DNA from: a phage
DNA length: 64,000 bases
NCBI GenBank assembly: GCA_027262695.1
Contig: GCA_027262695.1_4722.1
Strand: one strand, 5' to 3'
Part shown: positions 4,129 through 57,889 of the stretch, piece by piece
How the letters are laid out: each line of letters begins with the position of its first letter
How positions within the stretch are numbered: position 1 is the stretch's first letter
Program-made: the position numbers and the translations under genes
Notes under the pieces: model-generated
Told to the model about the DNA's origin: nothing
Database searches by the model: none
Seen by the model: the letters and a program-made list of their open reading frames with translations, nothing else

Positions 4129-4187
4129 GGTGGCCTCCTCGCCAGAAATTAGTTAAAAAAGAGTTTGCGATATGCTGCGCTATCACG

Positions 4188-6479
4188 TTAAGCATCCTCG
4201 GTAGGTAATGGTTTCACAATCAAACGATTGAGCGGATTCGATAGGCGCATACTGATAGGCTTATACGCAGCATGATTCGTTTCGCTCAATACAGCGGATC
4301 GGAAGCGACCTTCAACACGTTTATAGATTGGGTTTATCCAAAGACCCTGAAGACCCGGTTGACGGAAACGTTGTTCGATAGGTTTAATCGGTTTCACGGT
4401 CAAACCACGTACCGCTTCTGACGGTATACGTTCGCTGATGTCGCGAGGCGCTCGACCTGGGAATGGAGCCAACCAGAGACCATCCAGCGGGTTCTTACGG
4501 AAACGCAACGAGATAGGATCGCTGATAACCTGCGCCCAGTATTGCGTGCTGAACCGTACCGTCTGGGTATTCTCGTAACCGCTGCAATCGCACCAGGTGG
4601 GTTTCGGCGGGGCTTCTAAGCTCTCAACCGCGGATTCACGCCAGTTCGTCATTGGATTGTTATCATGGACGAATTTGATAACTTCCGTAGCCTGGTTATC
4701 CGTATCGTGAACGTTTGCTTGTGCCCAGTCCTCCCACAGTTCTTCACTGCCGCTTACCAAACTTGAACCGAGTCGAACGGCAATTTTGTTCAGTGGTTTG
4801 ATCGGATCACTGTTGATTGTCTGGATAAAATGGATGGTGTAACTGCTCAGTGTCTTAAGCAGCTGTAGCATCCCGTATTGAATATCCTTAAGACTGGTAA
4901 CGTCTTCCAAGTCTTGACCGGTGGCCTTCGTGAAGATATCGAGAGCCAGAATCCCTGCTTCTTCTTGACTGATTGCGTCAAGTTCCCAATCCATCGCTAA
5001 GAACCATTCCTTGTAAAGCTGTCCAATACCGAAATCAACCCCAACGTCCATGTAGAAGTTTTCAACGATCGCTTCAGCCATACCTCGAGCCTGGTAATGC
5101 TCCTGGAGCTGATACATGAACTGATGACGACGCCAACCCTGGTAAATTTCGGTAACGATGTTAAGAAATTCCTCAGTACTGACGATAGGACGTAATGTCA
5201 CCTGTTTATCTAAACACCACCAGATCAGTTTGTCAGGAATGATAACCGGATCGGTAATGCTACGAAGATGCTCGAATGTCGGTAACGTTAAAACGCGGAC
5301 GTGGTTAGCATGGATCTTAGGCACTTCAATCAGCGTCATACCCATCGAATAGTTCAGCAAATACAAGAATAGCTTGTAGGCATCTTTCATCGACATGGTC
5401 ATGGTATCACCCGTCACCGGGTTGGTGGTGGTTAACCGTGACTGATACATGCCGATGGAACTCAGATGGATCCATTCGTTGAGCAAGAAATCGTATTTCG
5501 GGTATAACTCACTGTCGGTAAGATCTTCCGCTTCACTTTCCAATACCTTGGTTGTTAAGGTATTATTGTCATGCATCGACATCTTCTCTATTGTGCGGTT
5601 AAGCTCGGTATAATACTCCGCTTCGTTATCCCGCGCTAGAGGGAACTGTTGTTGCATTACGGTGGTGACCTTACGACGTACCGTCCCGTTACCAACGATC
5701 TCTTGAAGGTTAAGCGGTTTACGTTCCATGTAAACAGTGGGTTTTAACGTCTGAGGTATTTCGGAAGCGTCTTGTTTGATCGAAAACGCACCGATTGGAA
5801 TGCCACGATCGGTTAATACCTTTTGAATGAGCTTATCGTAGTTTTCCGTTCTACCCATGTTCCTTTCGACGTAAGCGATGTTACGATAGAACCAGAGCAT
5901 TTGGGATTCTGTCATGTATCGCTTGAATCGATCAAGACCTTGATGGCTTGCCAGATAACTCCAGATATGGAAGCTATGGGCATAATGGGTATGACAGTTT
6001 TCCCAACGAATACCTTTTATCATCTCAGGTATTTGTGTGAATAGAATAGCATATAACGCAGGCCAATGAAGCATATCGACGCTTTCATATGCCGGATGTT
6101 CCCAGCGTCTGAAGTAGTCGTCGATTTCTTGCTGTAATCGTGGAATAAGGTTGGCTTCGCGTGATTCAACCTCACGGGTATCGTACCAGAGAATCTCGTG
6201 ATTGCGTGCAGCAATGGCTTTCTCGATATCGATGGGGTTAAGGATACCCAAGATCAACATACGTTGTTCCGGGTACCGTGCAATTAGACGATTGAAATAA
6301 TCTCCGCCGTACGCGTATTCCCTTGCGGTCATGCGGTGCCGTAGCATGTTTTCCTTGGTGAACTCGATCTCTTCGAGCGTATCCAGGGAATTGACGGTCA
6401 TCATTGTCTGACAAGGATGATACTCGCCAGCGAGATTCATGTAGTATAACCACGTGCGTGGGTCGTCCCCGACGGCCAT
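4188..6479 (-). CDS. large hypothetical protein (possible virion protein) with C-terminal short repeats
   Basis: The track ORF 4188-6668 begins with TTG and overlaps the + gene start at 6627; the first ATG at 6479 is the more plausible start; C-terminus carries repeated P-x-x-G-L-W-(L/I)-x-P motifs. Confidence 0.55.
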   Translation of the reverse strand: MAVGDDPRTWLYYMNLAGEYHPCQTMMTVNSLDTLEEIEFTKENMLRHRMTAREYAYGGDYFNRLIARYPEQRMLILGILNPIDIEKAIAARNHEILWYDTREVESREANLIPRLQQEIDDYFRRWEHPAYESVDMLHWPALYAILFTQIPEMIKGIRWENCHTHYAHSFHIWSYLASHQGLDRFKRYMTESQMLWFYRNIAYVERNMGRTENYDKLIQKVLTDRGIPIGAFSIKQDASEIPQTLKPTVYMERKPLNLQEIVGNGTVRRKVTTVMQQQFPLARDNEAEYYTELNRTIEKMSMHDNNTLTTKVLESEAEDLTDSELYPKYDFLLNEWIHLSSIGMYQSRLTTTNPVTGDTMTMSMKDAYKLFLYLLNYSMGMTLIEVPKIHANHVRVLTLPTFEHLRSITDPVIIPDKLIWWCLDKQVTLRPIVSTEEFLNIVTEIYQGWRRHQFMYQLQEHYQARGMAEAIVENFYMDVGVDFGIGQLYKEWFLAMDWELDAISQEEAGILALDIFTKATGQDLEDVTSLKDIQYGMLQLLKTLSSYTIHFIQTINSDPIKPLNKIAVRLGSSLVSGSEELWEDWAQANVHDTDNQATEVIKFVHDNNPMTNWRESAVESLEAPPKPTWCDCSGYENTQTVRFSTQYWAQVISDPISLRFRKNPLDGLWLAPFPGRAPRDISERIPSEAVRGLTVKPIKPIEQRFRQPGLQGLWINPIYKRVEGRFRSAVLSETNHAAYKPISMRLSNPLNRLIVKPLPTEDA

Positions 6480-9545: not shown

Positions 9546-9578
9546 CCGTTCGTAAAAAAAAAAAATAACACATAGTTA

Positions 9579-9613
9579 ACCTTCTCCCCAACCCGGAAGG
9601 GAAGGGGAGAAGG
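9579..9613. terminator. conserved GC-rich hairpin (family copy 2) with upstream A13 tract
   Basis: ccttctcccc-aaccc-ggaa-ggg-gaa-ggggagaagg; A-run 9552-9565 gives a U-tract after the hairpin on the minus-strand transcript; lies between convergent genes. Confidence 0.65.
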
Positions 9614-9630
9614 GCTATGCGCTATTTAAC

Positions 9631-14418: not shown

Positions 14419-15801
14419 TTATTTCTTCGATGACGCCTTCTCAAGAATCTTGAAAAAGGTCATACCTATACCGACAACGGCTGCGGTGATGCTTGCTGCA
14501 GCTTTCCAGACATCGACGTTACGTTGACGTCGTGCTTCTTCCGCCTCACGTTGTCTTTTTGCCTCTTCATCACGTCGGCGTATTTCAGCAGCGAATTCCT
14601 CATGCTTACGTTTCGCGTCTTCGTCTCGGCGACGCATTTCAGCGATAAGTTCATCGTGCTTACGTTTCGCGTCTTCATCGCGACGTTTGAGTTCAGCCAG
14701 ATGGTCATCTTGCATTTGTCGCCGAAGTTCGTCCTGACGTTTTATTTCGGCTCTATGCTGCTCATCACGCAGTTTTGCTTCAGCGCGATGGGTCTCTTGC
14801 ATCCGTTCGATGACGTCTTTATGTTCATCCGCCATACGTCGCATTTCAGCCATCACCCCTTTAAGGGTTTCTTCTGATGACTTACGTTCGTAGCTACGCT
14901 GGTCGAAATCATTTTTGTAGGCTTCCTTCTGGATGGGATCGCGCCAATGCAATGCCGATTCGCGGGTTGGAAAAACATTGTATTTCCACATTTCTTTTTC
15001 CAAATCTTCTACCGGTACGAAGACGGAATCATTATTCCCGAAGGTAACCAACATCCCTGGAGCACCTGCCCCGTTCGTTGGTTTTATTTCGAACGCTTTC
15101 CCCAAGACGTTAACCCATAAGCTGTACGGATTATGGAAGTCTGGTGGCGTCCAATGGATGGTGAGCTGTGTTCCGAGAATCCGGAACCCCTCTGGTTTTC
15201 CTGTTAAACTTCGCGCACATGTTGCGATATAGGGGTGATCAATCCCTTTCGTAACATGGTCAGCGCTTTTGTATTCTCCTTTAACTTTTACGATTGCCAC
15301 GTTAATTTGCGCGACATACACAGGTTGATTAAAATTTAAGGCTGTTAGGTCTATTCGACATATCTCGTCCAAGGTGTCGTACCAATCTTCCTGGTCGAGC
15401 AACCTGGGTTTTCTCTCGACGCACGTAATGCGTCGGATATGGGGTTTTCTTACCGCATAACCGCTTCGGTTTTTAACGCCCAGTATATCCCGTCGTCTAC
15501 CGTCGTAGACGAAGTTCTTGAACGCGCCATTCGCATTAGATATGTCATGGCTGTCAACTATTACAGGACTACGAAATTTTGAACGTCGTACGATCCTGAA
15601 TGTGTTACCCTCTTCGACCCTACCTGGAATGTATTGGAACATATTGTCGGATGTAATGACCAATACCGTATGCCCAGACTCATTAATACAACCCCACCCT
15701 AACTCTAAGTCATATAACGGTTCCTGGTATCCGTCGATGCTATACGTGCCTGTGCCATCCCACGGCTCAAACGGCGTATCGCAAACCGGCATAGAGGACA
15801 T
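14419..15801 (-). CDS. tail-anchored membrane protein with tandem 18 aa coiled-coil repeats
   Basis: 460 aa; four Arg/Glu/Lys-rich 18-residue repeats (e.g. AELKRRDEDAKRKHDELI) followed by a C-terminal hydrophobic segment AAASITAAVVGIGMTFFKIL; gagggagg SD. Confidence 0.6.
   Translation of the reverse strand: MSSMPVCDTPFEPWDGTGTYSIDGYQEPLYDLELGWGCINESGHTVLVITSDNMFQYIPGRVEEGNTFRIVRRSKFRSPVIVDSHDISNANGAFKNFVYDGRRRDILGVKNRSGYAVRKPHIRRITCVERKPRLLDQEDWYDTLDEICRIDLTALNFNQPVYVAQINVAIVKVKGEYKSADHVTKGIDHPYIATCARSLTGKPEGFRILGTQLTIHWTPPDFHNPYSLWVNVLGKAFEIKPTNGAGAPGMLVTFGNNDSVFVPVEDLEKEMWKYNVFPTRESALHWRDPIQKEAYKNDFDQRSYERKSSEETLKGVMAEMRRMADEHKDVIERMQETHRAEAKLRDEQHRAEIKRQDELRRQMQDDHLAELKRRDEDAKRKHDELIAEMRRRDEDAKRKHEEFAAEIRRRDEEAKRQREAEEARRQRNVDVWKAAASITAAVVGIGMTFFKILEKASSKK
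14550..14760. repeat. in-frame tandem 54 bp repeats inside the CDS
   Basis: catgcttacgtttcgcgtcttcgtctcggcgacgcatttcagc and cgtgcttacgtttcgcgtcttcatcgcgacgtttgagttcagc spaced 54 bp apart, with further degenerate copies flanking. Confidence 0.6.
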
Positions 15802-16013
15802 TGATTATCCTCCCTCAAACAGACAACATACATGCATAATGCACGTCCCTTTTCTTGTTATCATCACAACGACAGTCGACGGTTTCAGCATCATTCTTAG
15901 CGCGAGAACGACCTTACGTGTTGTCTATGCCTTTTTTCATTGAAGGCTTCTGTCACCTAGGTAATGTAAGCGTCAAATTTTTTCTAATCTAACCCAGCAT
16001 AACAGCATAATAA

Positions 16014-16043
16014 CCTCCCTCAGCCCGTAAGGACCGAGGGAGG
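16014..16043. terminator. conserved GC-rich hairpin (family copy 3) downstream of the putative major capsid gene
   Basis: cctccctc-agcccgtaaggacc-gagggagg; located 3' of the stop at 16143 on the minus strand. Confidence 0.5.
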
Positions 16044-16142
16044 TTGACTTATGTATCACGGTGCCGGATGAATGTCCGGTGTAATGAAACCATCCGCAAC
16101 GTTGTTTTCAAGAACTTCATCCAACGAAGCAGCTCCGGTATT

Positions 16143-18365
16143 TCAGTTAGTCTGAACCGGCAGCTTGATGTTTTCAGTGTAGACCTTACGCAGGTTCACA
16201 ACGTTGATCAGACCCAGCAGCGGGCAGTTGTTCACGAAACGGCAGCGCGGCTGAACCATGGTTTCTTTAGAAACCTGACCGTTACGAGTAACCTGAGCAA
16301 CGGATACCAGTTCCGGTACGTACAGGAACATACCGAAGGTCAGCGGATCCGGAGAACCCTGGATACCACGAGACAGGGTCACGAAGATCTTGTCGCGCAA
16401 CATGACGTTCGGGTTGTCTACAACCACGAAGTTGAAGCTTACACCCACGGTGCGGAAGTCACCGTCGGTCTGCAGGAACTGCGGGATGTAGTTGTCGGTT
16501 GCTACTACGCAACGCGGTTTCTCATCAGCGTTGGAAGACAGCAGCTGCAGAGCTGGCTGATAACCAGACTCGGAGTACATGCGGTACGCCATTTCACGAA
16601 TCACGTTCATGATCGCAGCGGATACTTCAGCACGACGTTCTGCAGTGGTGGTACCCTGAACGGATTTCTCCAGGTCCAGATCGATTTCTTCGAACCACGG
16701 ACGAATCAGGTAACGACCGAAACCTTCGATCTGAATGTCACCGAACTGACGGAAGCGAGAAGTTGCAACCGCTTTCAGGGCGTCTTTGTAGCTGAACAGT
16801 TTCTCAACCATCAGGTTGTCGAAACGTGCGTTAGCTGCTTGGATCAGAACATCCAGGTCAGCAGCGTTTTCTTCCCAATCCAGCGGACGAGGAATGGAGA
16901 ACGGAGCCAGCAGGCCGATTGCGTAACGTTCTTGCTTCATGTTGAAGTCAAGATGTTTACCGCGTTCACGACGGTTGCTGTTGTTACGACGGATACGCAG
17001 TTCGTAACCCACCAGTTTGAAGCTCAGGTCTTCAGCCAGATCTTTGAATTCCTGGCTCTTACGCGGTTGTTCGATGTTGTCCTGGTCAACCAGACGATAC
17101 AGTTCAGCGGTAGCGCCATTAACACGCAGACCCGCTTTCTCTACGTTGGAAGAACCGTAAACTTCGATCGCCAGCTGAGCAGCAGATTTCGCATCGATGA
17201 TGTCCTGCAGCGCTTCAGCTTTCGCACCTTTAACGTCAACGGTGTTCTCATCAACGAAGATGGAGTGGGTGTCGAACGCCAGGGTCATTTTGCGGAAGTC
17301 GCCTTCCAGGGATTTCTGGAAACCGTTGGTGATCAGACCGGATACGTCGAACGGAACGTAAGAGGTTTTGCTGTGCTTGGTGGATTTAATTTCCACCAGG
17401 ATTTTGGTCAGCGTGATCTGAGCATCCAGCGCGTCAGTGTTGTCGCTGTAACCGTTAGCCAGAATGCTATCGTCTTCAGCGATACCGATCATGTCGATCA
17501 GTTTATCAACCGCCAGGTAAGACGTTTTGTAAGTAACGCCTTTGATTTCGATGTCGCGCGGAGCAACGATGGTTTTATCAACGAAGTACTGCGCGTTAGC
17601 ATCGTCAGCACGGTAGATCGGATGCAGATCGGTCACGTCGTTGGACAGAACGTCGTTGTACATGAACGCATCCAGCAGCGGACGACGTACCCAATCAGCC
17701 GGAGTACCATCACCGTTACGACGCAGGTGGTTGAACACCAGCGGACGACGGAAGGAAACGTCATAACCGATCTGGTTCGGAGCCAGAACGATGGTGTTGT
17801 ACAGTTCGTTACCCATGCGGCTCAGACGAGACGCCTTCACGTTGAACACAACGGAGTACGGCATCATGTCACGCAGTTCTTTCTGGTCGTAGGACAGCTG
17901 AACCAGTTCTTCAGATTCACAACCGCAGGAATCCGCAGCCATCATGACGAAGTTAGCGCTGTCAACATCACGGCCGGACGGCGAGGTGCTGATGTTCATG
18001 GAACGTGCTTGTTTAGCATATTCCACCGGGTTGCCATGTGCCAGCATGATCAGCGCTGCAGCGCGAGCCTGCTGTGCGTTCATGGTGAACAGCTGTTCTT
18101 CAATACGTTGCTTCTCTTCCGGAGTTGTGGTTTCGAAGCCCAGCATGGACAGAACCGGTTCTTCAGCTTTACGGATGTCGCTGCTGAAGCTCTTAACATC
18201 CATTTCGTTAACCAGTTTGTCCATGGATTTGAAATCAACCTTAGAAGCAGATTCCATAGACAGGAAGGTGTTTTCCAGACCTTTGTCTGCTGGTTTGCTA
18301 CCATTAGCGGTCAGGAACTGGCGAGTGGCCGCGACCTGTTGGCTAAGAAGGGTTTTATCATTCAT
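16143..18365 (-). CDS. putative major capsid protein (highly expressed virion protein)
   Basis: 740 aa, the size class of jumbo-phage major capsid proteins; codon usage strongly biased to CTG/CGT/GGT/AAC/TTC unlike its neighbours; helical N-terminal region resembling a propeptide; the function is inferred, not matched to a database. Confidence 0.45.
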   Translation of the reverse strand: MNDKTLLSQQVAATRQFLTANGSKPADKGLENTFLSMESASKVDFKSMDKLVNEMDVKSFSSDIRKAEEPVLSMLGFETTTPEEKQRIEEQLFTMNAQQARAAALIMLAHGNPVEYAKQARSMNISTSPSGRDVDSANFVMMAADSCGCESEELVQLSYDQKELRDMMPYSVVFNVKASRLSRMGNELYNTIVLAPNQIGYDVSFRRPLVFNHLRRNGDGTPADWVRRPLLDAFMYNDVLSNDVTDLHPIYRADDANAQYFVDKTIVAPRDIEIKGVTYKTSYLAVDKLIDMIGIAEDDSILANGYSDNTDALDAQITLTKILVEIKSTKHSKTSYVPFDVSGLITNGFQKSLEGDFRKMTLAFDTHSIFVDENTVDVKGAKAEALQDIIDAKSAAQLAIEVYGSSNVEKAGLRVNGATAELYRLVDQDNIEQPRKSQEFKDLAEDLSFKLVGYELRIRRNNSNRRERGKHLDFNMKQERYAIGLLAPFSIPRPLDWEENAADLDVLIQAANARFDNLMVEKLFSYKDALKAVATSRFRQFGDIQIEGFGRYLIRPWFEEIDLDLEKSVQGTTTAERRAEVSAAIMNVIREMAYRMYSESGYQPALQLLSSNADEKPRCVVATDNYIPQFLQTDGDFRTVGVSFNFVVVDNPNVMLRDKIFVTLSRGIQGSPDPLTFGMFLYVPELVSVAQVTRNGQVSKETMVQPRCRFVNNCPLLGLINVVNLRKVYTENIKLPVQTN

Positions 18366-18514
18366 TGAAAGTATCCTTTACAGATTTAACTTATATAAGT
18401 CGGTCGATAGACCATAGCGTACACGCGTGCATGCGCCACTATAGTATCAGTAAACACTTACCGTTATTGAGGTTGTGATACAACACTAAAAATGCCGCAT
18501 AACTTTTCCCTACG
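18366..18514 (-). promoter_or_regulatory. upstream region of the putative capsid gene with palindromic sites
   Basis: 149 bp gap; contains the palindrome cacgcgtg (18422-18429), gcatgc, and a tatataag box about 30 nt before the ATG; tgtaaagga SD 8 nt before the ATG. Confidence 0.3.
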
Positions 18515-20785: not shown

Positions 20786-20812
20786 AACGCAAAAAAAAAA
20801 ATCGTACGGTTC

Positions 20813-20843
20813 CCTCCTCCAACCCGGAAGGGAAGGAGGAGGG
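20813..20843. terminator. conserved GC-rich hairpin (family copy 4) with upstream A11 tract
   Basis: ccctcctcc-aaccc-ggaa-ggg-aa-ggaggaggg; A-run 20792-20802; between convergent genes. Confidence 0.65.
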
Positions 20844-20860
20844 TTATGACCGTTATGGTG

Positions 20861-22228: not shown

Positions 22229-22303
22229 CGTATTTACCTTTTTATGTTAGGTGGGTTGCGGATAGAAGAATCAATGCATAGTCTGATTTAAGTTTGTTAA
22301 GAC

Positions 22304-23137
22304 TTACTTAGCTTTCGGATTATACGGACTAACATGTTGCTGCATTCGTTGGATTGTTTCGTAGTACGGGTTATAATGAGTGAACATATTGTTGTATGGA
22401 TGGTAGCCGTAAAGCGCATTTTGCCTTGCCGGTGAGAAACCTTTTTGAGAAGGACGATTTGAATTTACTGCGAGCACGTAGTAAACCAAATTTTGATGGT
22501 CGAATGTTCCTTCGTTTTTGAAGGTGTCAGCATAGGCGCTTACCGCAGGAGCAAGTCTATCACCATCGGTTGTAATGATCGTACCATCCGGGTAAACTTC
22601 TCGAACGATACACCATGTTCCGATGAGAACATCTTCGGGTGTCTTATTACTGTATCCGACTGTAACGGTAAGGTAAGTATCGAATCCTCCTGAGCACTGC
22701 GGATGTCGATAAATTGGGCCAGTCGTTTCTGCTTTATCGGTTACGGTTTTTTCGTAAGGACACTTCTTGATTGCTTTGATGTAAATATCGGGAATCTCTA
22801 ATACCGCCTTATCAGGATGAATTCTAAAATGATTCTTGAGTAAGCCCAAAAGGTTGGTTGCTACCACGTCGTGAGGTAGTACCCAATAACTGGTAGGGGA
22901 GTCATCGCCGTCTCTCTTGGAGAAGATGACTGCCTTGTTATCGTCGTCTGGTAGACTGAAGAAAACGATTGACTCAATAGGCATAGCCAGCTCACCACAA
23001 CAGGGGTCAGCGGATAACACCCAATTGTATTTGTTGTCCGTTTCGTATAAATGTTCTGTTCTGTCGATACTACGATCCTTCAATTGGATGTAGCGTTCAC
23101 GTTGTTTCTTGGTTAATTTACGGTAGATAGTGGTCAT
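22304..23137 (-). CDS. hypothetical protein, paralogue family B
   Basis: 277 aa; PIYRHPQCSGGFDTYLTVTVGY and REVYPDGTIITTDG align with PIYVHPECHTTYDRYLTITGG and REIYPDGRITTFCG of the next gene. Confidence 0.6.
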   Translation of the reverse strand: MTTIYRKLTKKQRERYIQLKDRSIDRTEHLYETDNKYNWVLSADPCCGELAMPIESIVFFSLPDDDNKAVIFSKRDGDDSPTSYWVLPHDVVATNLLGLLKNHFRIHPDKAVLEIPDIYIKAIKKCPYEKTVTDKAETTGPIYRHPQCSGGFDTYLTVTVGYSNKTPEDVLIGTWCIVREVYPDGTIITTDGDRLAPAVSAYADTFKNEGTFDHQNLVYYVLAVNSNRPSQKGFSPARQNALYGYHPYNNMFTHYNPYYETIQRMQQHVSPYNPKAK

Positions 23138-23185
23138 GTTAAGCTCCTTGATTACGGTAAGGATGATTTCGGTTTTGTGATGATG

Positions 23186-23213
23186 GTAGGACCACTTTGT
23201 TTAGGATCCTACC
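23186..23213 (-). terminator. hairpin downstream of a family B gene
   Basis: ggtagga...tcctacc inverted repeat immediately 3' of the stop at 23223. Confidence 0.35.
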
Positions 23214-23222
23214 AGTACGGGA

Positions 23223-23996
23223 TTATTCATGATCAGTGTAGAAATGGTGAGGATAGCCGGAGTACGATCCTGCGTTACCGGCTATGGATTCTTTCTGGGA
23301 ATCGACGACGAGCGCGTAGAACTGTCGGGAATTTGTTAACGTTGAGAAATAAGAGGAAAGGACTTTTTCGTTCAACGCATCGCACGGTAGACAGGTACGC
23401 CCACAGAACGTCGTAATACGGCCATCCGGATAGATCTCACGGATCATACGCCATTCACCGATATCAACCGGCGATGGCGCTGCTACACCACCTGTTATCG
23501 TTAAATAACGATCATACGTGGTATGACATTCTGGATGTACGTAAATTGGCTTATTGGCCTCAACTTCTTCAGGAGCATAGCGTCGACCGAGAAGTTCAAT
23601 AACCTCCAGATAGATTGTAGGCAGATCGCAAAGAACCCCTTCCTCTTTACGTTTCTTCGTGATTCGAGGACGAACCTCATTGATAACGTAGGCGAGTTCA
23701 TTCAGCGCTTCTTGCGCTGGTAGCACGAATAAACGGTCCGGTTTGTCGGACAAGTCTTCATTTACGTAAACGTAACAAACATCGTCTTTAGGCGCGTAGA
23801 AGAAGCGAGAGACCTTAAAGGTTTCCGTAGTACGATAACCGAGACGCGTTTGGTCCTGCACCAGAGAAAATATCCAGCGACGTCCTTCGTCCTGTTCAAT
23901 GATATCATTGAACATCTTTGTTTGATCAGGAAGTTGATATTCTTCCTGTAATTTAGCAAGTGCTTCATTATCCAGTTTGGTGTAAACATCAGTCAT
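23223..23996 (-). CDS. hypothetical protein, paralogue family B
   Basis: 257 aa; see 22304-23137; N-terminus MTDVYTKL resembles MTTIYRKL and MTDIYRNT of the flanking genes. Confidence 0.6.
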   Translation of the reverse strand: MTDVYTKLDNEALAKLQEEYQLPDQTKMFNDIIEQDEGRRWIFSLVQDQTRLGYRTTETFKVSRFFYAPKDDVCYVYVNEDLSDKPDRLFVLPAQEALNELAYVINEVRPRITKKRKEEGVLCDLPTIYLEVIELLGRRYAPEEVEANKPIYVHPECHTTYDRYLTITGGVAAPSPVDIGEWRMIREIYPDGRITTFCGRTCLPCDALNEKVLSSYFSTLTNSRQFYALVVDSQKESIAGNAGSYSGYPHHFYTDHE

Positions 23997-24023
23997 GATA
24001 GTATCCTCGATTAGTAAGGTTGG

Positions 24024-24428
24024 CTAGTCTATCTTAAGCCAGATTGATGGTAAATGGAAATAGACACCGTCGTCTATTTGTTTTTGTGTTAACGGGGTTG
24101 GAAGTTTAGTGATGATGTTGTCGATCGATTCCTCAATGTCACTTGTTAGAACGTCGATGTGGTAATAGCGAGCGATGCGTCCGTTACGTTCTAGCCAAAA
24201 CAGACGAACGAAATCACTATTTTTATTAATCGCATTCATAAACACGATTTGATGAAGCAGGATCATTCTTGACGAGGGGTAATCGTCAGGACGCGGAGTC
24301 ATCACCAGTTCCCAACGTTTCCGTCGCACGCCTTTTTTGAATTGACTCGTTACATTTGAACCACTTTTACCTAAGTTTATAACAAATTGCTTTAGACGAT
24401 ACGGTGTATTTCTGTAAATATCGGTCAT
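24024..24428 (-). CDS. hypothetical protein, short family B member (N-terminal domain only)
   Basis: 134 aa; MTDIYRNT start and HLPSIWLKID match the N-terminal halves of the two larger paralogues. Confidence 0.5.
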   Translation of the reverse strand: MTDIYRNTPYRLKQFVINLGKSGSNVTSQFKKGVRRKRWELVMTPRPDDYPSSRMILLHQIVFMNAINKNSDFVRLFWLERNGRIARYYHIDVLTSDIEESIDNIITKLPTPLTQKQIDDGVYFHLPSIWLKID

Positions 24429-24512
24429 TGATTATAGCTCCAGGTTATTATCACTAAGGTAATATAGTCGTGAAATAAACTGGAGTAATAGAAATAATAA
24501 GACGGCATAAGA

Positions 24513-24543
24513 CCCTCTCCCAACCCGTAAGGGAAGGGAGAGG
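24513..24543. terminator. conserved GC-rich hairpin (family copy 5)
   Basis: ccctctccc-aaccc-gtaa-ggg-aa-gggagagg; just 3' of the stop of the 24549-25916 gene. Confidence 0.6.
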
Positions 24544-25918: not shown

Positions 25919-26524
25919 TTAACGGCCTCGTTGTTGCTGCTGAATGATAAACTCTTCGATTTTAGTTCCTTTGAACTCGCTATGGCGTACGGCTTGCAGC
26001 TGTTCTTCAACCGTCGGACCCGCATTGAGACCGCCGCGACGTGCACGGTGGATACCGATTTTACGTCGCTGACCGATTTCACGTAAACGTGAGGTTAACC
26101 CGCTCATTTCCGTCGGATCTTTAATACGTCCACGTGCAACGTTCCATAGACCACCCATGAACTCTTCGAGGATACGACTTGCTTCAAGCGAAGGCGCACG
26201 CGCGTTAGGATCGTTTTCAAGATTGTACTTTACATACTCCGTGTGCTCCAGAAGAAGCGTGAACATTTTCATCGCGTTGACATCAGGATTAGCGATACGC
26301 ATCGGAACACCACGAGAGTGTTTTTCAGCGGCTTGTGGGATGGTAAGCTGTGCCGGTACCTCTTCGTTCATCGTCATATCGTCGATTTCTGCAACCCCTG
26401 ACGAGTAGACACCACTGACTTCGTTGGTATAGTTATCCACCATGAATTTACGGGGGATCCAGAATTCGAATTTACGTTCGAAAAGACGTTTGGTTGGGGT
26501 ATCTTTAACGTGTTGTAGACTCAT
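25919..26524 (-). CDS. hypothetical protein
   Basis: 201 aa ORF; stop/start overlap with neighbours suggests translational coupling. Confidence 0.55.
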   Translation of the reverse strand: MSLQHVKDTPTKRLFERKFEFWIPRKFMVDNYTNEVSGVYSSGVAEIDDMTMNEEVPAQLTIPQAAEKHSRGVPMRIANPDVNAMKMFTLLLEHTEYVKYNLENDPNARAPSLEASRILEEFMGGLWNVARGRIKDPTEMSGLTSRLREIGQRRKIGIHRARRGGLNAGPTVEEQLQAVRHSEFKGTKIEEFIIQQQQRGR

Positions 26525-27837
26525 GGTTCAATAGCTCCTGCTCGTAACAGCATAATAACGAACGGTGTGAAATAATAACGATCTAACGGAGAAAGCAGTG
26601 GTATAGCGTCAACCATCTGCTTCAGTGCCGGATGACTGATTGCCTTTTCATCAATCATGTCGCGCACCATACTTTCAATAATCGTCATTGGCGCTTGGTT
26701 GCGATAGAACGCCTCGGTGAAAACATAGTACGGATCATCTACTACTGATGGAAACAACGGAACGCCGTCATACTCCATCGATGTAAGGTTGGTCACCAAC
26801 GGATTTGTCGGTGGTGTGCTTTCAGGTACCGCCAACTCTTTACCGACGTCTTCACCGAGCGACGTGGTCACAGGCCACATACAGAACCGCGCACCACTAA
26901 AACGAATCCCGCCTGCAGCCGGGTATTGGTAGAAACGCTTTGTTGACAACAGTGTGAATTTCACCGTCAACCGTGCTTCGTCTTCCCGACGTCCGTCCAT
27001 GACCCATTCAAAGACAGAAATCGCATTCGCTTCCTGGTTATCGTCTACGTTAAGGCGTCCAAAGTTCCATGATGGCTTTCCTTCAAGCGACGACCATAAT
27101 TTCGTAAACGCATTAACACACCAGGGATCGTAGGTTGCCGCATCCTGACCAGGAACAAGTAGTGTGTTTAATTCACGGCTGTAAAATTCGTGGTAATACG
27201 CGTGACAAAGTCCCAGTGCACGACGGAGATAATCGTACTTACGATTGTATTTCTCCGTTGCCATTACGGGATGTTTTCCGTGCTTTAACTGGTCTTGGTC
27301 GTATAGCGTATCCTCAACGATTTTCGCTTCCAGTTCGATAAGCTGTTTTTCGTCAAGAATACGTTGGAAGGAAATGTCGCATTCGTAAGCCGGTGCTAAG
27401 CTGATGTTCTTCGGCGTGATTCGGGTGATTGTGTACACCGCGATACGATGATCGAGACCGGAGATTAACAGCATGTTACCTAAAAGAGGAACCGATACCG
27501 CCGGAAGTATACACGTACCCTCTGATTGAAAACGTGCGGTACCGTTGTCGTACGACGGCGTCAATGACGACATTAACTTGATAGGGTAATGTCTGATGCG
27601 ACGGTACTGCTGTTCAGCGATATCGCGGTTAGCTTGAAAACTGCTTTGTTCATCATCGCGACCGAGAATCTGTTCGTAATAATCACATTCTACGGAATAA
27701 CCGGATGCGTAATTCACTAACCCGATTTGACTATTGTATTGCTCATCCACCACCGCAGAACGATAAACATCGTCGCGAGCCTTCGCGGGTTGTTGGGGGT
27801 TGATGATGGGTTTCGCGGGCTTCTTAGCGAGCGCCAT
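26521..27837 (-). CDS. hypothetical protein
   Basis: 438 aa ORF. Confidence 0.6.
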   Translation of the reverse strand: MALAKKPAKPIINPQQPAKARDDVYRSAVVDEQYNSQIGLVNYASGYSVECDYYEQILGRDDEQSSFQANRDIAEQQYRRIRHYPIKLMSSLTPSYDNGTARFQSEGTCILPAVSVPLLGNMLLISGLDHRIAVYTITRITPKNISLAPAYECDISFQRILDEKQLIELEAKIVEDTLYDQDQLKHGKHPVMATEKYNRKYDYLRRALGLCHAYYHEFYSRELNTLLVPGQDAATYDPWCVNAFTKLWSSLEGKPSWNFGRLNVDDNQEANAISVFEWVMDGRREDEARLTVKFTLLSTKRFYQYPAAGGIRFSGARFCMWPVTTSLGEDVGKELAVPESTPPTNPLVTNLTSMEYDGVPLFPSVVDDPYYVFTEAFYRNQAPMTIIESMVRDMIDEKAISHPALKQMVDAIPLLSPLDRYYFTPFVIMLLRAGAIEP

Positions 27838-29416
27838 AGCGTTTCACTCCTACGATGGTACCGACAAGAATTCTCGGTACGAATAAACTACGATGTTTGA
27901 ACCACGAAGCGGTTGTCGGGATACGTTTGATGGCTTCGATAAGCCCGATTAGCGTATAGCACCCCCGACTGTTCTTCTTAGGCCAGTACTTTTTATCTAG
28001 ACCTAATACTGCAAACAGCTCATCCACCAGATTGGGATAACAACACAATGCTTCAAGTGTTTCAACCTGTAACTGACTTAAATCTAACAGTATCGCCAGA
28101 CGAACGTGGTAATCACTCCGTAGGTCTAATGGATCTTTCGCTTCAAGATCGCCAACGTCGGTTAATGTCCACGCGTCTCTTGCGTAGCGGTATTTGCCCT
28201 TCCAAACTTCAAGGAAAAAAGGAGACTGGTAATGGCATTTTGACCATTCCGGGTACTCACGGAACCACCGAACAAGATCGGGATGGAATTCACCTTCTTC
28301 GGCTAACGAGTCCAACGTCACCAACAGGTTAGGTTGTTCAGGATCGATAGCGAGCAGCGCGGTGAAAAGCGTGCTTGATGGAAGCTCGGTCTCTACGCTC
28401 GATGGAGGCAGCCATTCATCCAAATCGGGATACCGATACGCTTGAATCGACGCACCCTGTTCCGGCAAGAACGAATCACGAAGAATGTCCTGATACTGCA
28501 CCACCATACCACCACGACGCGCACGGGATTTATCACGCACCGAAAGGCTCGGTTTGTAAAGGTACTCTTCGGGGAGTATCTGTTGGTGTACTTGAACAGG
28601 ATACCGCGCTACGATGTGTGTTGGCGTGTCGTATGTGTAACGGTAAGAGAAGGTTGCGTTGTACGAAGAACTGTTCTCATTCTTCTCGGGTTTCGGAGCG
28701 TCGGTGAAATCAAATTGACCAGAGATCTCTTCTTGCATTTCCCTGATAACCAATTTAACGCTCTTACCGTCACCTGCAACCGTCGTCATGGTGGTTGCGC
28801 GGTTGTCGAACCCGTCTCTAAGGTATTCGCTGAACTTATCCCCGTAACCCGCTATTGCTTCCCGGTGTGTATGAATAACTTTTAACAACATGAGAAACTG
28901 TGTTGGGATCGCATAGCTGTATTCGGCGCTAAGGAAGGCAGCGACGTGCTGACTTGTCAGCAAACGTTTCATGTCGTACCACCAACGTTCGGCGGTGACC
29001 TGATCCTCGAACCGTTTGGTGATCTGCATGGTCGCAACCATCGTACTGTAAACAGGTACTAGCGATACGCCAAGGTTACGGTCTTCAAATACGGGAAGAC
29101 TGTTTCGTTTGTAAACGGTATCGTACATAGAGGCCTGTTCTTCAGGGACAATGTTAAGCTCAATTTGGATAAACCCGTCAGCAGGCCCCTTTACATCCTG
29201 ATCAACAACTTGCGGCGGTTGCTCGTTCGCAGCACTCATTTTAGCGTGAAGAGCTTCCCCTCGAAAAAGAATGTTCTCCCGACTATAATCCCACCCGCAA
29301 AGCTCGCTGATCTGCCGTAACACCGCGATTGCAACCGGACGTGTTACCGTCGCGTATACGTCATTGATTTTTCGATCAAGTTTAGGCATCGGTGTCGTCC
29401 TCGCTAATTTCCCCAC
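27824..29416 (-). CDS. hypothetical protein
   Basis: 530 aa ORF; the start may be the internal Met about 27 nt downstream (near 29389) to reduce overlap with the upstream gene. Confidence 0.55.
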   Translation of the reverse strand: MGKLARTTPMPKLDRKINDVYATVTRPVAIAVLRQISELCGWDYSRENILFRGEALHAKMSAANEQPPQVVDQDVKGPADGFIQIELNIVPEEQASMYDTVYKRNSLPVFEDRNLGVSLVPVYSTMVATMQITKRFEDQVTAERWWYDMKRLLTSQHVAAFLSAEYSYAIPTQFLMLLKVIHTHREAIAGYGDKFSEYLRDGFDNRATTMTTVAGDGKSVKLVIREMQEEISGQFDFTDAPKPEKNENSSSYNATFSYRYTYDTPTHIVARYPVQVHQQILPEEYLYKPSLSVRDKSRARRGGMVVQYQDILRDSFLPEQGASIQAYRYPDLDEWLPPSSVETELPSSTLFTALLAIDPEQPNLLVTLDSLAEEGEFHPDLVRWFREYPEWSKCHYQSPFFLEVWKGKYRYARDAWTLTDVGDLEAKDPLDLRSDYHVRLAILLDLSQLQVETLEALCCYPNLVDELFAVLGLDKKYWPKKNSRGCYTLIGLIEAIKRIPTTASWFKHRSLFVPRILVGTIVGVKRYGAR

Positions 29417-29765
29417 CTCCTTGTTGTCGATATCCGGTATAATGAATCAGACTGCTCTGTAGAAGCTCTTTAACGAGCCCTAGACGCGTTTTATCTGTTT
29501 CATTGGACGTTTCCATTAATGTTTCTATTTCATTGTTTAAAACAGCGTATAGCGCTTCTAACGGCAATCCTTGGATGATTGGTTTGATGGTACCTTCCGG
29601 TAGTGCCGCAACAGGAATCTGCACGACGGTTTCGTGTGCGGTATGTGGGTTAATACGGCAAATATACATACCGGGTACTGAATGTCGCGGGCACGCCGCT
29701 ACCAAGCATGTCTGTTGCTGCGCACCGTTAAGTGCGAGTGAAAGAAATTTTGCTTCACGTGTCAT
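29382..29765 (-). CDS. small hypothetical protein
   Basis: 127 aa ORF. Confidence 0.45.
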   Translation of the reverse strand: MTREAKFLSLALNGAQQQTCLVAACPRHSVPGMYICRINPHTAHETVVQIPVAALPEGTIKPIIQGLPLEALYAVLNNEIETLMETSNETDKTRLGLVKELLQSSLIHYTGYRQQGGGEISEDDTDA

Positions 29766-29810
29766 CGCAGATTCCTGTTTGAAAGATAAGATATCACATG
29801 ATGGTCGACA

Positions 29811-29847
29811 GCATAAAGCCCACCCCGAAGGGCGGGCTGTTTATGCG
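29811..29847 (-). terminator. long imperfect hairpin downstream of the 1124 aa gene
   Basis: gcataaagcccaccc-cgaa-gggcgggctgtttatgc, 7 nt 3' of the stop at 29854. Confidence 0.5.
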
Positions 29848-29853
29848 TACGGA

Positions 29854-33228: not shown

Positions 33229-33243
33229 AAAGCGTTATTCCTC

Positions 33244-35635: not shown

Positions 35636-35660
35636 TTAGGACTCCTACGTAGGAAAGATC

Positions 35661-35684
35661 ATGGTGGGTGATCATGTCCACCAT
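35661..35684 (-). other. hairpin in the 5' leader of the 34334-35635 gene
   Basis: atggtgg-gtgatcatgt-ccaccat inverted repeat 26-50 nt upstream of the start; a second hairpin (tatgaagc...gcttcata) follows at 35692-35712. Confidence 0.35.
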
Positions 35685-35750
35685 TGTGCGTGGTATGAAG
35701 CGTGGCTTCATACCCAAGTCAAAAGATAACCGGTCATCAACACCATAAAA

Positions 35751-35782
35751 CCCTCCTCCAACCCATTAGGGAAGGAGGAGGG
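35751..35782. terminator. conserved GC-rich hairpin (family copy 6)
   Basis: ccctcctcc-aaccc-atta-ggg-aa-ggaggaggg between the co-directional family C genes. Confidence 0.6.
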
Positions 35783-35790
35783 TGCTTATC

Positions 35791-37083: not shown

Positions 37084-37092
37084 ATGGGTTCC

Positions 37093-38436: not shown

Positions 38437-38460
38437 AAGATAAATCAGAGCAGCATAGAA

Positions 38461-38494
38461 CCCTCTCCCTTCCCTGACGGGTTGGGAGAGGGAA
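38461..38494. terminator. conserved GC-rich hairpin (family copy 7, inverted orientation)
   Basis: ccctctccc-tt-ccc-tgac-ggg-tt-gggagaggg, the reverse-complement orientation of the other copies. Confidence 0.55.
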
Positions 38495-38514
38495 TATGTC
38501 AGTTTGCTAACTGA

Positions 38515-39846
38515 TTATTTCTGTGCTGCGTCAGCCGGTTTTTCAGCCGCCTGGCCGCCGTACTCTTTCAGCATTTTAGCAACGCCGTCCAGTACTGCGT
38601 TACCCGCCTGAACACCGTACTTCATCAGGCTAACCTGCGGGTTGATGTAGCAAGAACGTGCGTCTTTCAGTGCAGACAGCACAGTTTTAACACGCTGTTT
38701 CTCTTGAGCAGAAACTTCGCCTTTCTTAGCCAGTTCAGCTTCCATATCGTCGCCGAATTTAACAGCGTCTTTGAAGCCCTGGGATTTCTTACCGATGTTA
38801 CCTTTCGCAGCCAGCAGTTTATCGGCCAGCGCTTCAACGCTGTTGATCACCGCAGCCATCTGGTTCGGGGACAGTACATCGGCTTCCTGTTCCATCACGG
38901 TGATTGCGTTATTGCCGCGTTCCCAGGTCACTTTACCGTCGGTGGTTTTGAATCCCCAACCGTTCGGACCTTTCACATCAGCGATCGCAGGCGCGTTCAG
39001 TTTGTCGGTGTACTCAGTATGTGATTTAGACTTAACGAGTTCAACGAATTTATCCGCACGATCGTCAGCCGCCTTCATTGCTTTCTCGAAGGTATCTGCG
39101 ATTTTGCTTGATGCACCAGCGATATCGATATCGCCAATATAACCGGTAACAGTGGTGCCCAGTTTAACTTTCGCGTTCTTCGGAGAGCCTTTACGTTTGG
39201 CGATCATTTCTTTCAGTTTAGCCGCACGTGCTTTCAGCTTGGTTGCACCGTCGAAGATACGATCGATGAACTTCACGAAGTTGTCCCAGGTGGATTTCAG
39301 GAAGTTCTTAATTGCAGTCCACAGTTTCTGCCACCATTTCTGTTCTTCCAGGAAGATCATGTTGGTTGCATCATAACGGGAAGCGGAACCGCCGAAGCTT
39401 TCGAAGGAAGGCATGGTTTCCGGCAGTTTGAAGCCGATAGTACCACACAGACGTTTCAGATTACGCATGTGTTCTTGCGCGGTCTGTGCAGACATACCAC
39501 CGTCTTTCAGATAGCTTTCGGTCGCAACAACGGTTTCCGTCATTTCGTCCATGGCTTCGTCCATGGCTTCAGCGGTTTCGTCGTCTTTTGCGATTTCGAT
39601 AACAACAGCATCAACCTGCTCGATGTCACCACGGACTTCGATAGCCAGTTCGGTTTCAGCAGCGGTGTCTTCAGCGATTTCAGCACGTTCGGTCAGTTCA
39701 GCCACAACGGTTTCATCGCCTGCAGCAGCATCGGCTGCCGGTTCTGCTTCAACGGTTGCCGCAGCTTCCGGATCGATCTCAGCAGCCAGTTGAACCAGCT
39801 GTGCGTTAGATGGATTTGCGACAAGACGATCAAAAATAGAAGGCAT
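38515..39846 (-). CDS. highly expressed paralogue family C protein (abundant virion, scaffold or internal head protein candidate)
   Basis: 443 aa; strongly optimised codon usage like the putative capsid gene; acidic Ala/Glu-rich N-terminus; KLWTAIKNFLKSTWDNFVKFIDRIF family helix; tgtaaagga-N8-ATG initiation region identical in layout to the capsid gene. Confidence 0.5.
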   Translation of the reverse strand: MPSIFDRLVANPSNAQLVQLAAEIDPEAAATVEAEPAADAAAGDETVVAELTERAEIAEDTAAETELAIEVRGDIEQVDAVVIEIAKDDETAEAMDEAMDEMTETVVATESYLKDGGMSAQTAQEHMRNLKRLCGTIGFKLPETMPSFESFGGSASRYDATNMIFLEEQKWWQKLWTAIKNFLKSTWDNFVKFIDRIFDGATKLKARAAKLKEMIAKRKGSPKNAKVKLGTTVTGYIGDIDIAGASSKIADTFEKAMKAADDRADKFVELVKSKSHTEYTDKLNAPAIADVKGPNGWGFKTTDGKVTWERGNNAITVMEQEADVLSPNQMAAVINSVEALADKLLAAKGNIGKKSQGFKDAVKFGDDMEAELAKKGEVSAQEKQRVKTVLSALKDARSCYINPQVSLMKYGVQAGNAVLDGVAKMLKEYGGQAAEKPADAAQK

Positions 39847-39887
39847 AATTTGTTTCCTTTACAATAAATTGCACATTAGCTAATGCG

Positions 39888-39914
39888 GCTTAAGCAAGCT
39901 GTAATCTTGCTTAA
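39888..39914 (-). terminator. hairpin overlapping the stop of the 39911-40441 gene
   Basis: gcttaagcaag-ctgtaat-cttgcttaa inverted repeat. Confidence 0.35.
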
Positions 39915-57884: not shown

Positions 57885-57889
57885 CCGAT

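Follow-up and report, generated by a model that had tools for sequence, protein, structure and literature searches.

The closest described counterpart of the locus analysed here is found in the E. coli jumbo phage Goslar, the virion of which has been studied by cryo-EM and mass spectrometry (preprint 10.64898/2026.04.21.720040). The Goslar major capsid protein (MCP, gp41) adopts the canonical HK97 fold and is present in 1,615 copies in a T=27 capsid. Residues 1-157 are not visible in the mature capsid (the model and chain 36za begin at residue 158), and the authors of the preprint inferred that the N-terminal part is processed. According to the same work, gp58 is the single dominant member of the PF12699 family, with about 2,150 copies per virion, and is injected into the host, while gp53 to gp57 are fold-level paralogs of gp58. 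Label-free mass spectrometry of Goslar virions ranks gp41, gp58 and gp23 as the top three proteins by LFQ molar fraction (10.64898/2026.04.21.720040). When screening the literature by title and abstract, we found no published codon-usage analysis of Goslar.

The window studied here is a 64-kb stretch of phage DNA, in which an original prediction singled out two genes as very highly expressed on the basis of their codon usage, one of them being a putative major capsid protein gene. This window is close kin to Goslar, with about 88% nucleotide identity overall (also about 88% for the whole phage) and 96% in the 16143-18365 gene, and contains several segments that are non-homologous to Goslar. 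Divergence between the two is mosaic, as a block at 26.5-35.6 kb is far closer to Goslar than its flanks are. The source phage is a nucleus-forming E. coli jumbo phage of the Goslar type. No tRNA gene was detected in the 64-kb window, nor in the complete Goslar genome.

Identity of the two genes

Both ORFs are present with the coordinates and sizes originally described:

16143..18365, (-) strand: major capsid protein (MCP) gene, 740 aa, ortholog of Goslar gp41; PhiKZ-type HK97 fold, with Pfam, PHROG and PDB matches
38515..39846, (-) strand: Goslar gp58 ortholog, 443 aa; PF12699 phiKZ-like internal head/injected protein; second codon-optimized gene

Sequence comparisons identify the product of the first gene as a PhiKZ-type HK97-fold major capsid protein. 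It matches the Pfam family PhiKZ_MCP (PF25620) with an E-value of 4.5e-217 and a score of 722.6 bits, far above the cut-off of 27, and its residues 98-731 span positions 2-635 of the 635 positions of the profile, which places it within the family. It also matches the PHROG 3231 major head protein and aligns over its full length, at about 98% identity, with two solved Goslar chains annotated as 'Major capsid protein' (11bt and 36za), as well as, more distantly, with phiKZ gp120 (8y6v, E=2e-55). These matches bear out the proposal, made from the size of the product, that it is a jumbo-phage capsid protein, and the HK97 fold follows from the near-identical solved chains and the canonical fold described for Goslar. 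Compared with Goslar gp41, the protein is of equal length, is encoded in the same genomic context and differs by 12 amino-acid substitutions, with about 4% nucleotide differences (95.7% identity over a 2.5-kb query spanning the gene, 96.1% within the CDS).

The second gene belongs to the PF12699 family (69.9 bits, cut-off 27), matches the PHROG 5750 internal head protein (E=1.2e-8) and shares 87% amino-acid identity with Goslar gp58; the 12.7% divergence is concentrated in residues 180-345 and is accompanied by a 3-residue indel. As in the Goslar gp53-gp58 region, it lies in a cluster of paralogs (37093-38436 and 33244-34350 match PF12699 at 28.6 and 21.5 bits, respectively) and adjoins a gp91-like vertex protein gene (39911-40441, PF25618 PhiKZ_gp91). 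It shares its domain and genomic position with the phiKZ gp92-97 'inner body'/injected proteins as well as with Goslar gp58. By analogy with the Goslar ortholog, from which copy number and injection are taken, this gene would encode the dominant PF12699 'inner head' protein.

Extent and nature of the codon bias

With the Sharp and Li weights, the codon adaptation index (CAI) reaches 0.742 for the MCP gene and 0.693 for the gp58 ortholog, versus 0.23-0.42 for the other 49 ORFs. A second, independent reference, built from 28 ribosomal-protein, elongation-factor and rpoA genes of E. coli K-12, gives 0.793 (z = 6.2) and 0.756 (z = 5.6), values comparable to that of E. coli fusA (0.79), while the other 50 ORFs have a mean of 0.404 (sd 0.063) and a maximum of 0.527. 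When checked against an enterobacterial reference, both genes therefore stand far above their neighbours (0.79 and 0.76 vs 0.40), as had been anticipated. The effective number of codons (ENC) is 30.9 for the MCP gene and 32.8 for the gp58 ortholog; it mostly lies between 43 and 61 (about 50) in the other ORFs, one short ORF having 37.6. Wright's expectation from GC3 alone is an ENC of about 58-60. Synonymous usage differs from that of the rest of the window with p = 3e-72 for the MCP gene and p = 6e-23 for the gp58 ortholog (G-test).

The codon set of the two genes had been described as almost exclusively host-optimal, which holds for Leu, Arg, Gly, Phe and Asn and less so for Glu and Lys. In the MCP gene and the gp58 ortholog, respectively, CTG represents 94 and 93% of Leu codons, CGT and CGC together 100% of Arg codons in both, GGT and GGC together 100 and 97% of Gly codons, TTC 100 and 93%, AAC 93 and 81%, GAA 85 and 85%, and AAA 75 and 80%. 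Optimal codons ending in T are also enriched (GCT from 0.25 to 0.51, ACT from 0.09 to 0.26, TCT from 0.12 to 0.29-0.38), so that the bias is not a mere GC or GC3 shift. A GC3 higher than that of the neighbours, as originally reported for both genes, is found only for the capsid gene (0.60, the highest of the window), the gp58 ortholog (0.51) falling between its own neighbours (0.43 and 0.54).

Codon-usage islands of this kind could also be compositional islands left by horizontal acquisition, and the capsid gene does have the highest GC (0.515), together with the highest GC3, of the window. We nevertheless consider such an origin very improbable. ENC values of 31-33 at a GC3 of 0.51-0.60 are far below the GC3-only expectation, the GC3 of the gp58 ortholog is ordinary, and usage is shifted towards E. 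coli-optimal codons regardless of whether these end in G or C or in T or A. In addition, both genes are core, syntenic chimallivirus genes, their bias follows protein copy number (see below), and diverged MCP genes from relatives infecting other enterobacterial hosts are equally biased: those of Salmonella phage SEGD1 and Klebsiella phage MJ359, at about 26% amino-acid identity, both have a CAI of 0.73.

Codon bias, protein abundance and selection

The two genes had been predicted to be very highly expressed and abundant in virions, in agreement with the top-three rank of their Goslar orthologs gp41 and gp58 in virions. In Goslar, CAI correlates with virion LFQ molar fraction over 47 proteins (Spearman 0.71, p = 2e-8), and exactly five genes exceed a CAI of 0.6: those encoding the MCP, gp58, gp23, gp214 and chimallin (0.61 for the latter). 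If Goslar copy numbers apply, the MCP and gp58 would be the two largest translation loads in terms of copies multiplied by length. The gp58 paralog region (29854-38436), which lies on the same strand, provides an internal control: its CAI values are 0.23-0.42, and its Goslar orthologs are present in 50-330 copies (10.64898/2026.04.21.720040). However, three abundant Goslar virion proteins (gp158, gp066 and gp088) have only moderate CAI values (0.34-0.43), indicating that codon bias is an imperfect readout of abundance.

Comparison of the window with Goslar also bears on the maintenance of the bias. In the MCP gene, 81% of third-position synonymous transitions stay within codons with w >= 0.2, versus 61% under a transition-only null (p = 0.0015) and 55% in other genes; this null replaced a naive synonymous-change test, the p-value of which (3e-18) was inflated by transition bias. 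Under the same null, synonymous-site constraint between the gp58 ortholog and Goslar gp58 is not significant. At the sites where amino acids have been replaced in gp58, codons are still optimal (CAI 0.65-0.72). The synonymous difference of the MCP gene from Goslar is low (0.098), and no correlation between CAI and synonymous divergence was found across 38 ortholog pairs in the window (Spearman 0.27, n.s.), as divergence is governed mainly by mosaic recombination.

Taken together, expression-linked translational selection is very probably the cause of the codon bias of the two genes. Phage mRNAs are translated by host ribosomes, with no tRNA genes of the phage's own detected in the window or in Goslar, so that selection for fast, ribosome-sparing and accurate translation would favour codons read by abundant E. 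coli tRNAs and would have driven both genes to the codon-adaptation level of E. coli elongation-factor genes. Both genes also have a weakly structured leader, with an AAGGA Shine-Dalgarno sequence spaced 8 nt from the ATG, and a very stable, conserved 3' hairpin that probably terminates or stabilizes the mRNA.

Codon optimality affects mRNA stability and accuracy, and the bias may have been selected mainly for the stability of the mRNA, for the accuracy of an assembly-critical protein or for the evasion of host RNA-targeting defences. Chimallin, an early shell protein with fewer copies per virion that still reaches a CAI of 0.61, would fit such effects. On the present data they are inseparable from translation load, but the scaling of the bias with copy number, over the 47 virion proteins as well as among paralogs, is what load predicts, and we judge it quite unlikely that one of them is the main target of selection.

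The bias points to E. coli, or a close relative of it, as the host. A further practical use is the following: in Goslar-like phages, CAI alone picks the most-made proteins (capsid, dominant PF12699 protein, gp23, gp214 and nuclear-shell protein) and could serve as a cheap predictor of abundance in uncharacterized jumbo phages.

The antisense reading frame

The strand opposite to the capsid gene carries a long ORF:

16044..18368, (+) strand: antisense 'shadow' ORF, 774 codons, in the codon-aligned reverse frame of the capsid gene; not a gene

This stop-free frame had been attributed to the codon bias, and our results lead to the same view: the antisense ORF is a by-product of the bias. The capsid gene contains no TTA, CTA or TCA codon, and avoidance of these codons, the reverse complements of which are the three stop codons, leaves its antisense frame open from end to end. 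At the codon usage of the other genes, all 739 codons would avoid these three with a probability of about 1e-10; at the rate of the gp58 ortholog, the probability is about 0.035.

A genuine overlapping gene, for which TTA, CTA and TCA would have been avoided to hold the frame open, is hardly credible, even though the antisense ORF exceeds the sense gene in length and the lack of stops is somewhat lucky at gp58-ortholog codon usage. In Goslar, a TCA codon in the capsid gene places a stop in the homologous antisense frame. Substitutions between the window and Goslar are concentrated at sense third positions (74 of 87), with the result that 77 of 741 antisense residues differ versus 12 of 740 sense residues. 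Moreover, the antisense ORF has no Pfam or PHROG match, its start is a TTG located inside the hairpin region downstream of the capsid gene, and the MCP gene of SEGD1, although unrelated in sequence, is equally devoid of TTA, CTA and TCA. A gene call based on the longest ORF selected the antisense ORF over the capsid gene and was overturned by family searches. This is a warning for gene callers: the true capsid gene is shorter than its shadow ORF, and choosing the longest ORF leads to the wrong strand.

The case is a textbook instance of the long antiparallel 'shadow' ORFs of prokaryotic genes (bioRxiv 10.1101/724807), with the same codon-aligned reverse frame, rarity of TTA, CTA and TCA, and lack of coding evidence; we noted nothing that sets it apart.

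Initiation sites, leaders and 3' hairpins

Upstream of the two genes, the following features were identified:

18374..18382, (-) strand: TGTAAAGGA before the capsid ATG, 8-nt spacing; Shine-Dalgarno core AAGGA with a TGTA prefix; conserved in Goslar
39855..39863, (-) strand: TGTAAAGGA before the gp58-ortholog ATG, 8-nt spacing; conserved in Goslar
18366..18514, (-) strand: capsid-gene leader, 149 nt, intergenic; TATG at about -58 by a small hairpin and TTATGCGG at about -137

The identical initiation layout noticed earlier is exact, as TGTAAAGGA-N8-ATG occurs at both genes. This 9-mer is essentially an ordinary Shine-Dalgarno site, given that the AAGGA core accounts for 5 of its 9 bases and that many genes of the window use AAGGA at similar spacing. 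One may ask whether it is instead a dedicated regulatory element, such as a translational enhancer or a binding site for a co-regulator of head proteins, which would be compatible with translational selection. There is no further exact copy in the window, the two copies have the same offset and are conserved in Goslar, and no other of the 1,035 gene pairs shares so long a run at the same offset; this pair also has the two highest CAI values. Nevertheless, 8-mers are common to three further pairs and 7-mers to eight, the rest of the two 30-nt leaders is unlike (11 of 30 positions match), and TGTAAAGGA is absent at the other top-CAI Goslar genes (gp23, gp214 and chimallin) as well as at the MCP genes of SEGD1 and MJ359. 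A dedicated element thus appears rather unlikely, and the common Shine-Dalgarno site is the preferred reading. Judged by the folding energy of their initiation regions (-30 to +30), the two genes are only in the upper quartile of weakly structured genes (ranks 7 and 11 of 47) and do not stand out.

The capsid leader is identical to that of Goslar at 165 of 168 positions, versus about 88% for the surrounding block. In phiKZ, the late promoter is TATG, with transcription starting (+1) at the G, and the TATG at about -58 and TTATGCGG at about -137 are candidate late promoters for a phage RNA polymerase. A scan for sigma-70 promoters upstream of both genes found none on the gene strand, the sole match of the capsid-region scan being on the opposite strand; this is expected because the phage uses its own RNA polymerases.

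Three hairpins flank the two genes:

16005..16054, (-) strand: GC-rich hairpin about 90 nt past the capsid stop codon; -36.6 kcal/mol, z -6.3
38453..38499, (-) strand: GC-rich hairpin after the gp58-ortholog stop; -34.1 kcal/mol, z -5.5; followed by TATGCTG (38457-38451)
39890..39914, (-) strand: hairpin lying between the gp58 ortholog and the gp91-like vertex protein gene; the stem carries two changes from Goslar that are fully compensatory

The first is probably a terminator or a stabilizer of the 3' end, and the second probably a terminator: pairing-preserving base changes keep the stem of the former in Goslar, while the latter has identical stems and different loops in the two phages. Both are members of a family of the form CATA-CCCTCCTCC-AA-CCC-N4-GGG-AA-GGAGGAGGG-TATG. 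TATGCTG occurs twice after the capsid hairpin (16009-16003 and 16001-15995). A fixed TATGCTG heptamer was considered and rejected, as two homologous Goslar sites read TATGCCG and only TATGC is conserved there.

These hairpins resemble the conserved stem-loop terminators of phiKZ and 201phi2-1 (PMC11512511) in that a strong hairpin of conserved sequence recurs in numerous intergenic regions and can in some cases be used on both strands. They differ in constituting a sequence family of their own, in which the TATG at the flank matches the phiKZ late-promoter motif, and are candidate sites of termination and initiation. The TATG is also part of a CATA...TATG palindrome around the hairpins and may simply extend the stem.

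It is conceivable, if doubtful, that both genes lie in dedicated Goslar-like expression cassettes, in which a strongly conserved leader with TGTAAAGGA-N8-ATG would be combined with a palindromic 3' module (CATA, GC-rich hairpin, TATG) acting both as terminator and as late re-initiation promoter (TATG being the site of the phiKZ non-virion RNA polymerase). Under this view, the hairpin might supply the 'missing' determinant by which some TATG sites become functional promoters.

Comparison with other phages

The effect described here is real yet ordinary and well understood: the proteins had already been identified, their abundance was known and translational selection was established as a principle, and our understanding of phage biology is unchanged. 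Lucks et al. 2008 (PMC2266997) likewise found, among phage structural and late genes, a preference for host-preferred codons in the most abundant virion proteins. Compared with that study, the contrast is unusually sharp in this phage, with two genes at the level of ribosomal-protein genes in a genome otherwise at a CAI of about 0.4, and it occurs in a Goslar-like phage, in which transcription, in the phage nucleus, is kept apart from translation.

Identity of the two genes

Two minus-strand genes of the window had been singled out as very highly expressed, the first of them as the putative major capsid gene of a jumbo phage. Both ORFs are present as stated, as is a long stop-free frame opposite the first:

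16143-18365 (-): 740 aa, major capsid protein (MCP), ortholog of Goslar gp41
38515-39846 (-): 443 aa, ortholog of Goslar gp58
16044-18368 (+): antisense ORF, 774 codons, codon-aligned reverse frame of the MCP gene

The 740-aa protein matches the Pfam family PhiKZ_MCP (PF25620) from end to end (E=4.5e-217) as well as the PHROG 'major head protein' family, and is ~98% identical over its full length to solved 'Major capsid protein' chains (11bt and related chains, 36za); phiKZ gp120 (8y6v) is also detected (E=2e-55). Gp41 of Escherichia phage vB_EcoM_Goslar (hereafter Goslar) adopts a canonical HK97 fold in a T=27 capsid containing 1,615 copies, and its first 157 residues are not seen by cryo-EM (10.64898/2026.04.21.720040), which suggests proteolytic processing; chain 36za begins at residue 158. 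The profile match, the solved chains and the fold of gp41 thus bear out the expected major capsid protein with an HK97-like fold. The 443-aa protein belongs to the phiKZ-like internal head proteins (PF12699, 69.9 bits for a cut-off of 27) and is 87% identical to Goslar gp58, which is present in ~2,150 copies per virion according to virion mass spectrometry and is injected into the host (10.64898/2026.04.21.720040). Its gene lies beside that of a gp91-like vertex protein (PF25618) and a series of weaker paralogs of family PF12699, a cluster syntenic with phiKZ gp91-97 (10.64898/2026.04.21.720040). Both identities are already established by curated profiles and by the solved structure of a 98%-identical ortholog.

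Relationship to Goslar

The 2.5 kb surrounding the MCP gene are 95.7% identical to Goslar, a nucleus-forming jumbo phage of 237 kb (Goslarvirus), which is the only member of the phage collection to match this region at about that level. Goslar annotations place 'major head protein' gp041 and hypothetical protein gp058 at the positions homologous to our two genes. As collinear blocks are 72-93% identical (~88% around the MCP gene) and seven window segments have no Goslar counterpart, the window represents a distinct relative of Goslar. Segments without a blastn match include:

22288-24447 (three ORFs: 22304-23137, 23223-23996, 24024-24428)
36028-36461
47065-47517
48438-49232
59131-60084
60670-62255

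ORF 46781-50386 (1,201 aa) is ~270 aa longer than Goslar gp064 because of two internal stretches unmatched in Goslar. Synonymous codon differences amount to 0.03-0.14 within 26521-35635 and to 0.3-0.5 in many flanking genes, and the protein-level difference reaches 28-35% in the flank at 35791-38436. Such mosaic divergence suggests recombination between lineages. Segment 56709-58242 is unmatched in Goslar, which has a different NUMOD1/HNH gene there. A DNA polymerase fragment (55211-56710, +) is followed by a 368-aa ORF (56778-57884, +) and, just after it, by a group I intron (57871-58196, +; Rfam 69.9 bits, E=1e-15), suggesting that the polymerase gene carries an intron/homing-endonuclease insertion differing from that of Goslar.

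Codon usage bias

We computed the codon adaptation index (CAI) with weights that we take to be the E. coli values of Sharp & Li (1987). The MCP gene scores 0.742 and the gp58 ortholog 0.693, the next-best gene 0.424 and the median of all 51 ORFs 0.31. A second, independent reference was built empirically from 4,936 codons of 28 E. coli K-12 genes (ribosomal proteins, EF-Tu, EF-G, rpoA). The two weight sets are highly correlated (r = 0.976), and under the empirical one both genes again stand far above the other ORFs (0.793 and 0.756, z = 6.2 and 5.6; other 50 ORFs: mean 0.404, sd 0.063, maximum 0.527), the MCP gene being on par with E. coli fusA (0.792). The bias announced in the original prediction is thus confirmed against an enterobacterial reference, and both genes depart from the remainder of the window in their synonymous codon choice (p = 3e-72 for MCP, 6e-23 for the gp58 ortholog).

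Both genes had also been credited with a higher GC3 than their neighbours, which holds for the MCP gene (0.60) but not for the gp58 ortholog (0.51, inside the neighbours' range). GC3 does not account for the bias: it is raised for only one gene, optimal codons ending in T or A are enriched as well (GCT, GTT, ACT, TCT, CGT, GGT, GAA, AAA), and the effective number of codons (30.9 for MCP and 32.8 for the gp58 ortholog; ~43-61 for most other ORFs) lies far under the 58-60 expected from GC3 alone by Wright's formula.

Codon usage and protein abundance

Scanning the whole Goslar genome, we found exactly five genes with a CAI above 0.6, the next one reaching 0.48:

MCP: CAI 0.74
gp58: CAI 0.73
gp23 (gp023), 16862-17404 (+): CAI 0.66, DUF7941, abundant virion protein
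gp214, 201334-201813 (-): CAI 0.66, abundant virion protein
gp246, 171003-172898 (-): CAI 0.61, nuclear-shell protein chimallin

In Table S4 of the Goslar preprint, gp58, gp23 and gp41 are the top three virion proteins by LFQ molar fraction and gp214 is sixth (10.64898/2026.04.21.720040), so that the orthologs of both genes have the predicted virion abundance. Across the 47 proteins in the first part of this table, CAI and molar fraction are correlated (Spearman 0.71, p = 2e-8). Multiplying published copy numbers by length gives ~1.2 million residues per Goslar virion for MCP and ~0.95 million for gp58, which are the two largest translation loads by this measure. The PF12699 paralogs beside gp58 provide an internal control pointing the same way: they share its family, strand and neighbourhood, yet their CAI is only 0.23-0.42 and their Goslar counterparts reach 50-330 copies (10.64898/2026.04.21.720040).

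No tRNA gene was detected in the window or in Goslar, and translation therefore relies on the host tRNA pool. High CAI recurs in two distant chimalliviruses of enterobacteria, in MCP genes whose products are only ~26% identical to ours, against a local median of ~0.3 in each case:

Salmonella phage SEGD1, 19632-21698: MCP, CAI 0.729
Klebsiella phage MJ359, 19644-21929: MCP, CAI 0.730

Two neighbouring SEGD1 genes, gp055 and gp056 (3765-6379), have CAI values of 0.64-0.70.

Between the window and Goslar, 74 of the 87 MCP substitutions fall at third positions; counted by codon, 69 differences are synonymous and 12 are non-synonymous. Among third-position synonymous transitions, 81% link codons with w of at least 0.2, against 61% under a transition-only null (p = 0.0015) and 55% in other genes. 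Gp58 evolves faster, yet even where its amino acids have been replaced, the codons remain optimal (CAI 0.65-0.72). Selection on codon usage thus appears to be ongoing, and the pattern is the one classically left where translational selection acts on strongly expressed structural genes of phages (Lucks et al. 2008, PMC2266997).

The antisense ORF

The MCP gene contains no TTA, CTA or TCA codon. As these are the reverse complements of the three stop codons, the aligned antisense frame cannot hold a stop. The chance of such an absence is ~1e-10 to 1e-12 at other genes' usage, and ~0.035 at the rate of the gp58 ortholog. Were the antisense ORF a gene, its product should be conserved; instead, a single TCA in the Goslar MCP gene interrupts it, the antisense 'protein' accumulates 77 differences from Goslar for 12 in the real protein, and no family match was found (Pfam, PHROG). 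We therefore reject it as a gene and, as predicted, consider it a by-product of the bias. The SEGD1 MCP gene, unrelated at the DNA level, likewise lacks all three codons, and a gene-length antisense ORF is thus expected there too. Such shadow ORFs are well described (10.1101/724807). They are a trap for gene calling: choosing the longest ORF selects the antisense frame over the true MCP gene.

The shared initiation site

Both genes carry the initiation layout TGTAAAGGA-N8-ATG without deviation, as originally reported; it has no further exact copy in the window and is kept at both genes in Goslar. Among 1,035 pairs of upstream regions, no other pair shares so long a run at the same offset. The AAGGA Shine-Dalgarno core common to many window genes accounts for five bases of TGTAAAGGA, three other upstream pairs share 8-mers, and outside it the two leaders are unrelated (11/30 positions). 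It is absent upstream of Goslar gp23, gp214 and chimallin and of the SEGD1 and MJ359 MCP genes, and mRNA structure at both start sites is low without being exceptional. We thus regard it as a ribosome-binding site that is good but ordinary, and give any further role a small probability. Goslar gp23 and gp214 resemble each other in an upstream stretch (TTTTCGACCATCAAAAAA and TTTTGATCGATCGAAAAAA) that the capsid gene lacks.

Capsid leader and 3' hairpins

The abundance of both proteins is already measured in Goslar, and that codon bias goes with expression is textbook knowledge. Title and abstract screening found no report on codon usage in Goslar-like phages, and the five Goslar genes above CAI 0.6 make a neat addition, though not a surprising one. 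Mild novelty lies only in a hairpin-TATG module together with a conserved capsid leader. In the 149-nt region upstream of the MCP gene, 165 of 168 positions are kept in Goslar, for ~88% in the surrounding block. Hairpins lie 3' of both the MCP gene (-36.6 kcal/mol, z -6.3) and the gp58 ortholog (-34.1 kcal/mol, z -5.5), and their stems are kept in Goslar through pairing-compatible changes. They belong to a family of very stable, GC-rich hairpins found at about a dozen Goslar sites and in ten or more of the window's intergenic regions:

463-505
9571-9619
16005-16054 (3' of the MCP gene)
20806-20853
24514-24543
29805-29852
35745-35789
38453-38499 (3' of the gp58 ortholog)
46735-46777
60578-60626

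The consensus is CATA-CCCTCCTCC-AA-CCC-N4-GGG-AA-GGAGGAGGG-TATG, with no U-tract; the core usually lies within the CATA...TATG flanks, which make the palindrome identical on either strand. Between the capsid hairpin and the next gene (14419-15801), within a 340-nt gap, ~200 nt of non-coding sequence (15802-16004, -) contain no ORF and are ~92% conserved with Goslar; this stretch might serve as a long 5' leader or give rise to a small RNA.

As phiKZ and 201phi2-1 possess stem-loop terminators of conserved sequence (PMC11512511), the hairpins are probably terminators for the phage RNAP. In phiKZ, late promoters have the motif TATG, with +1 at G (PMC4666361, PMC12809450); the TATG beside the hairpins agrees with it, and by this analogy the hairpin-TATG elements may double as candidate late promoters.
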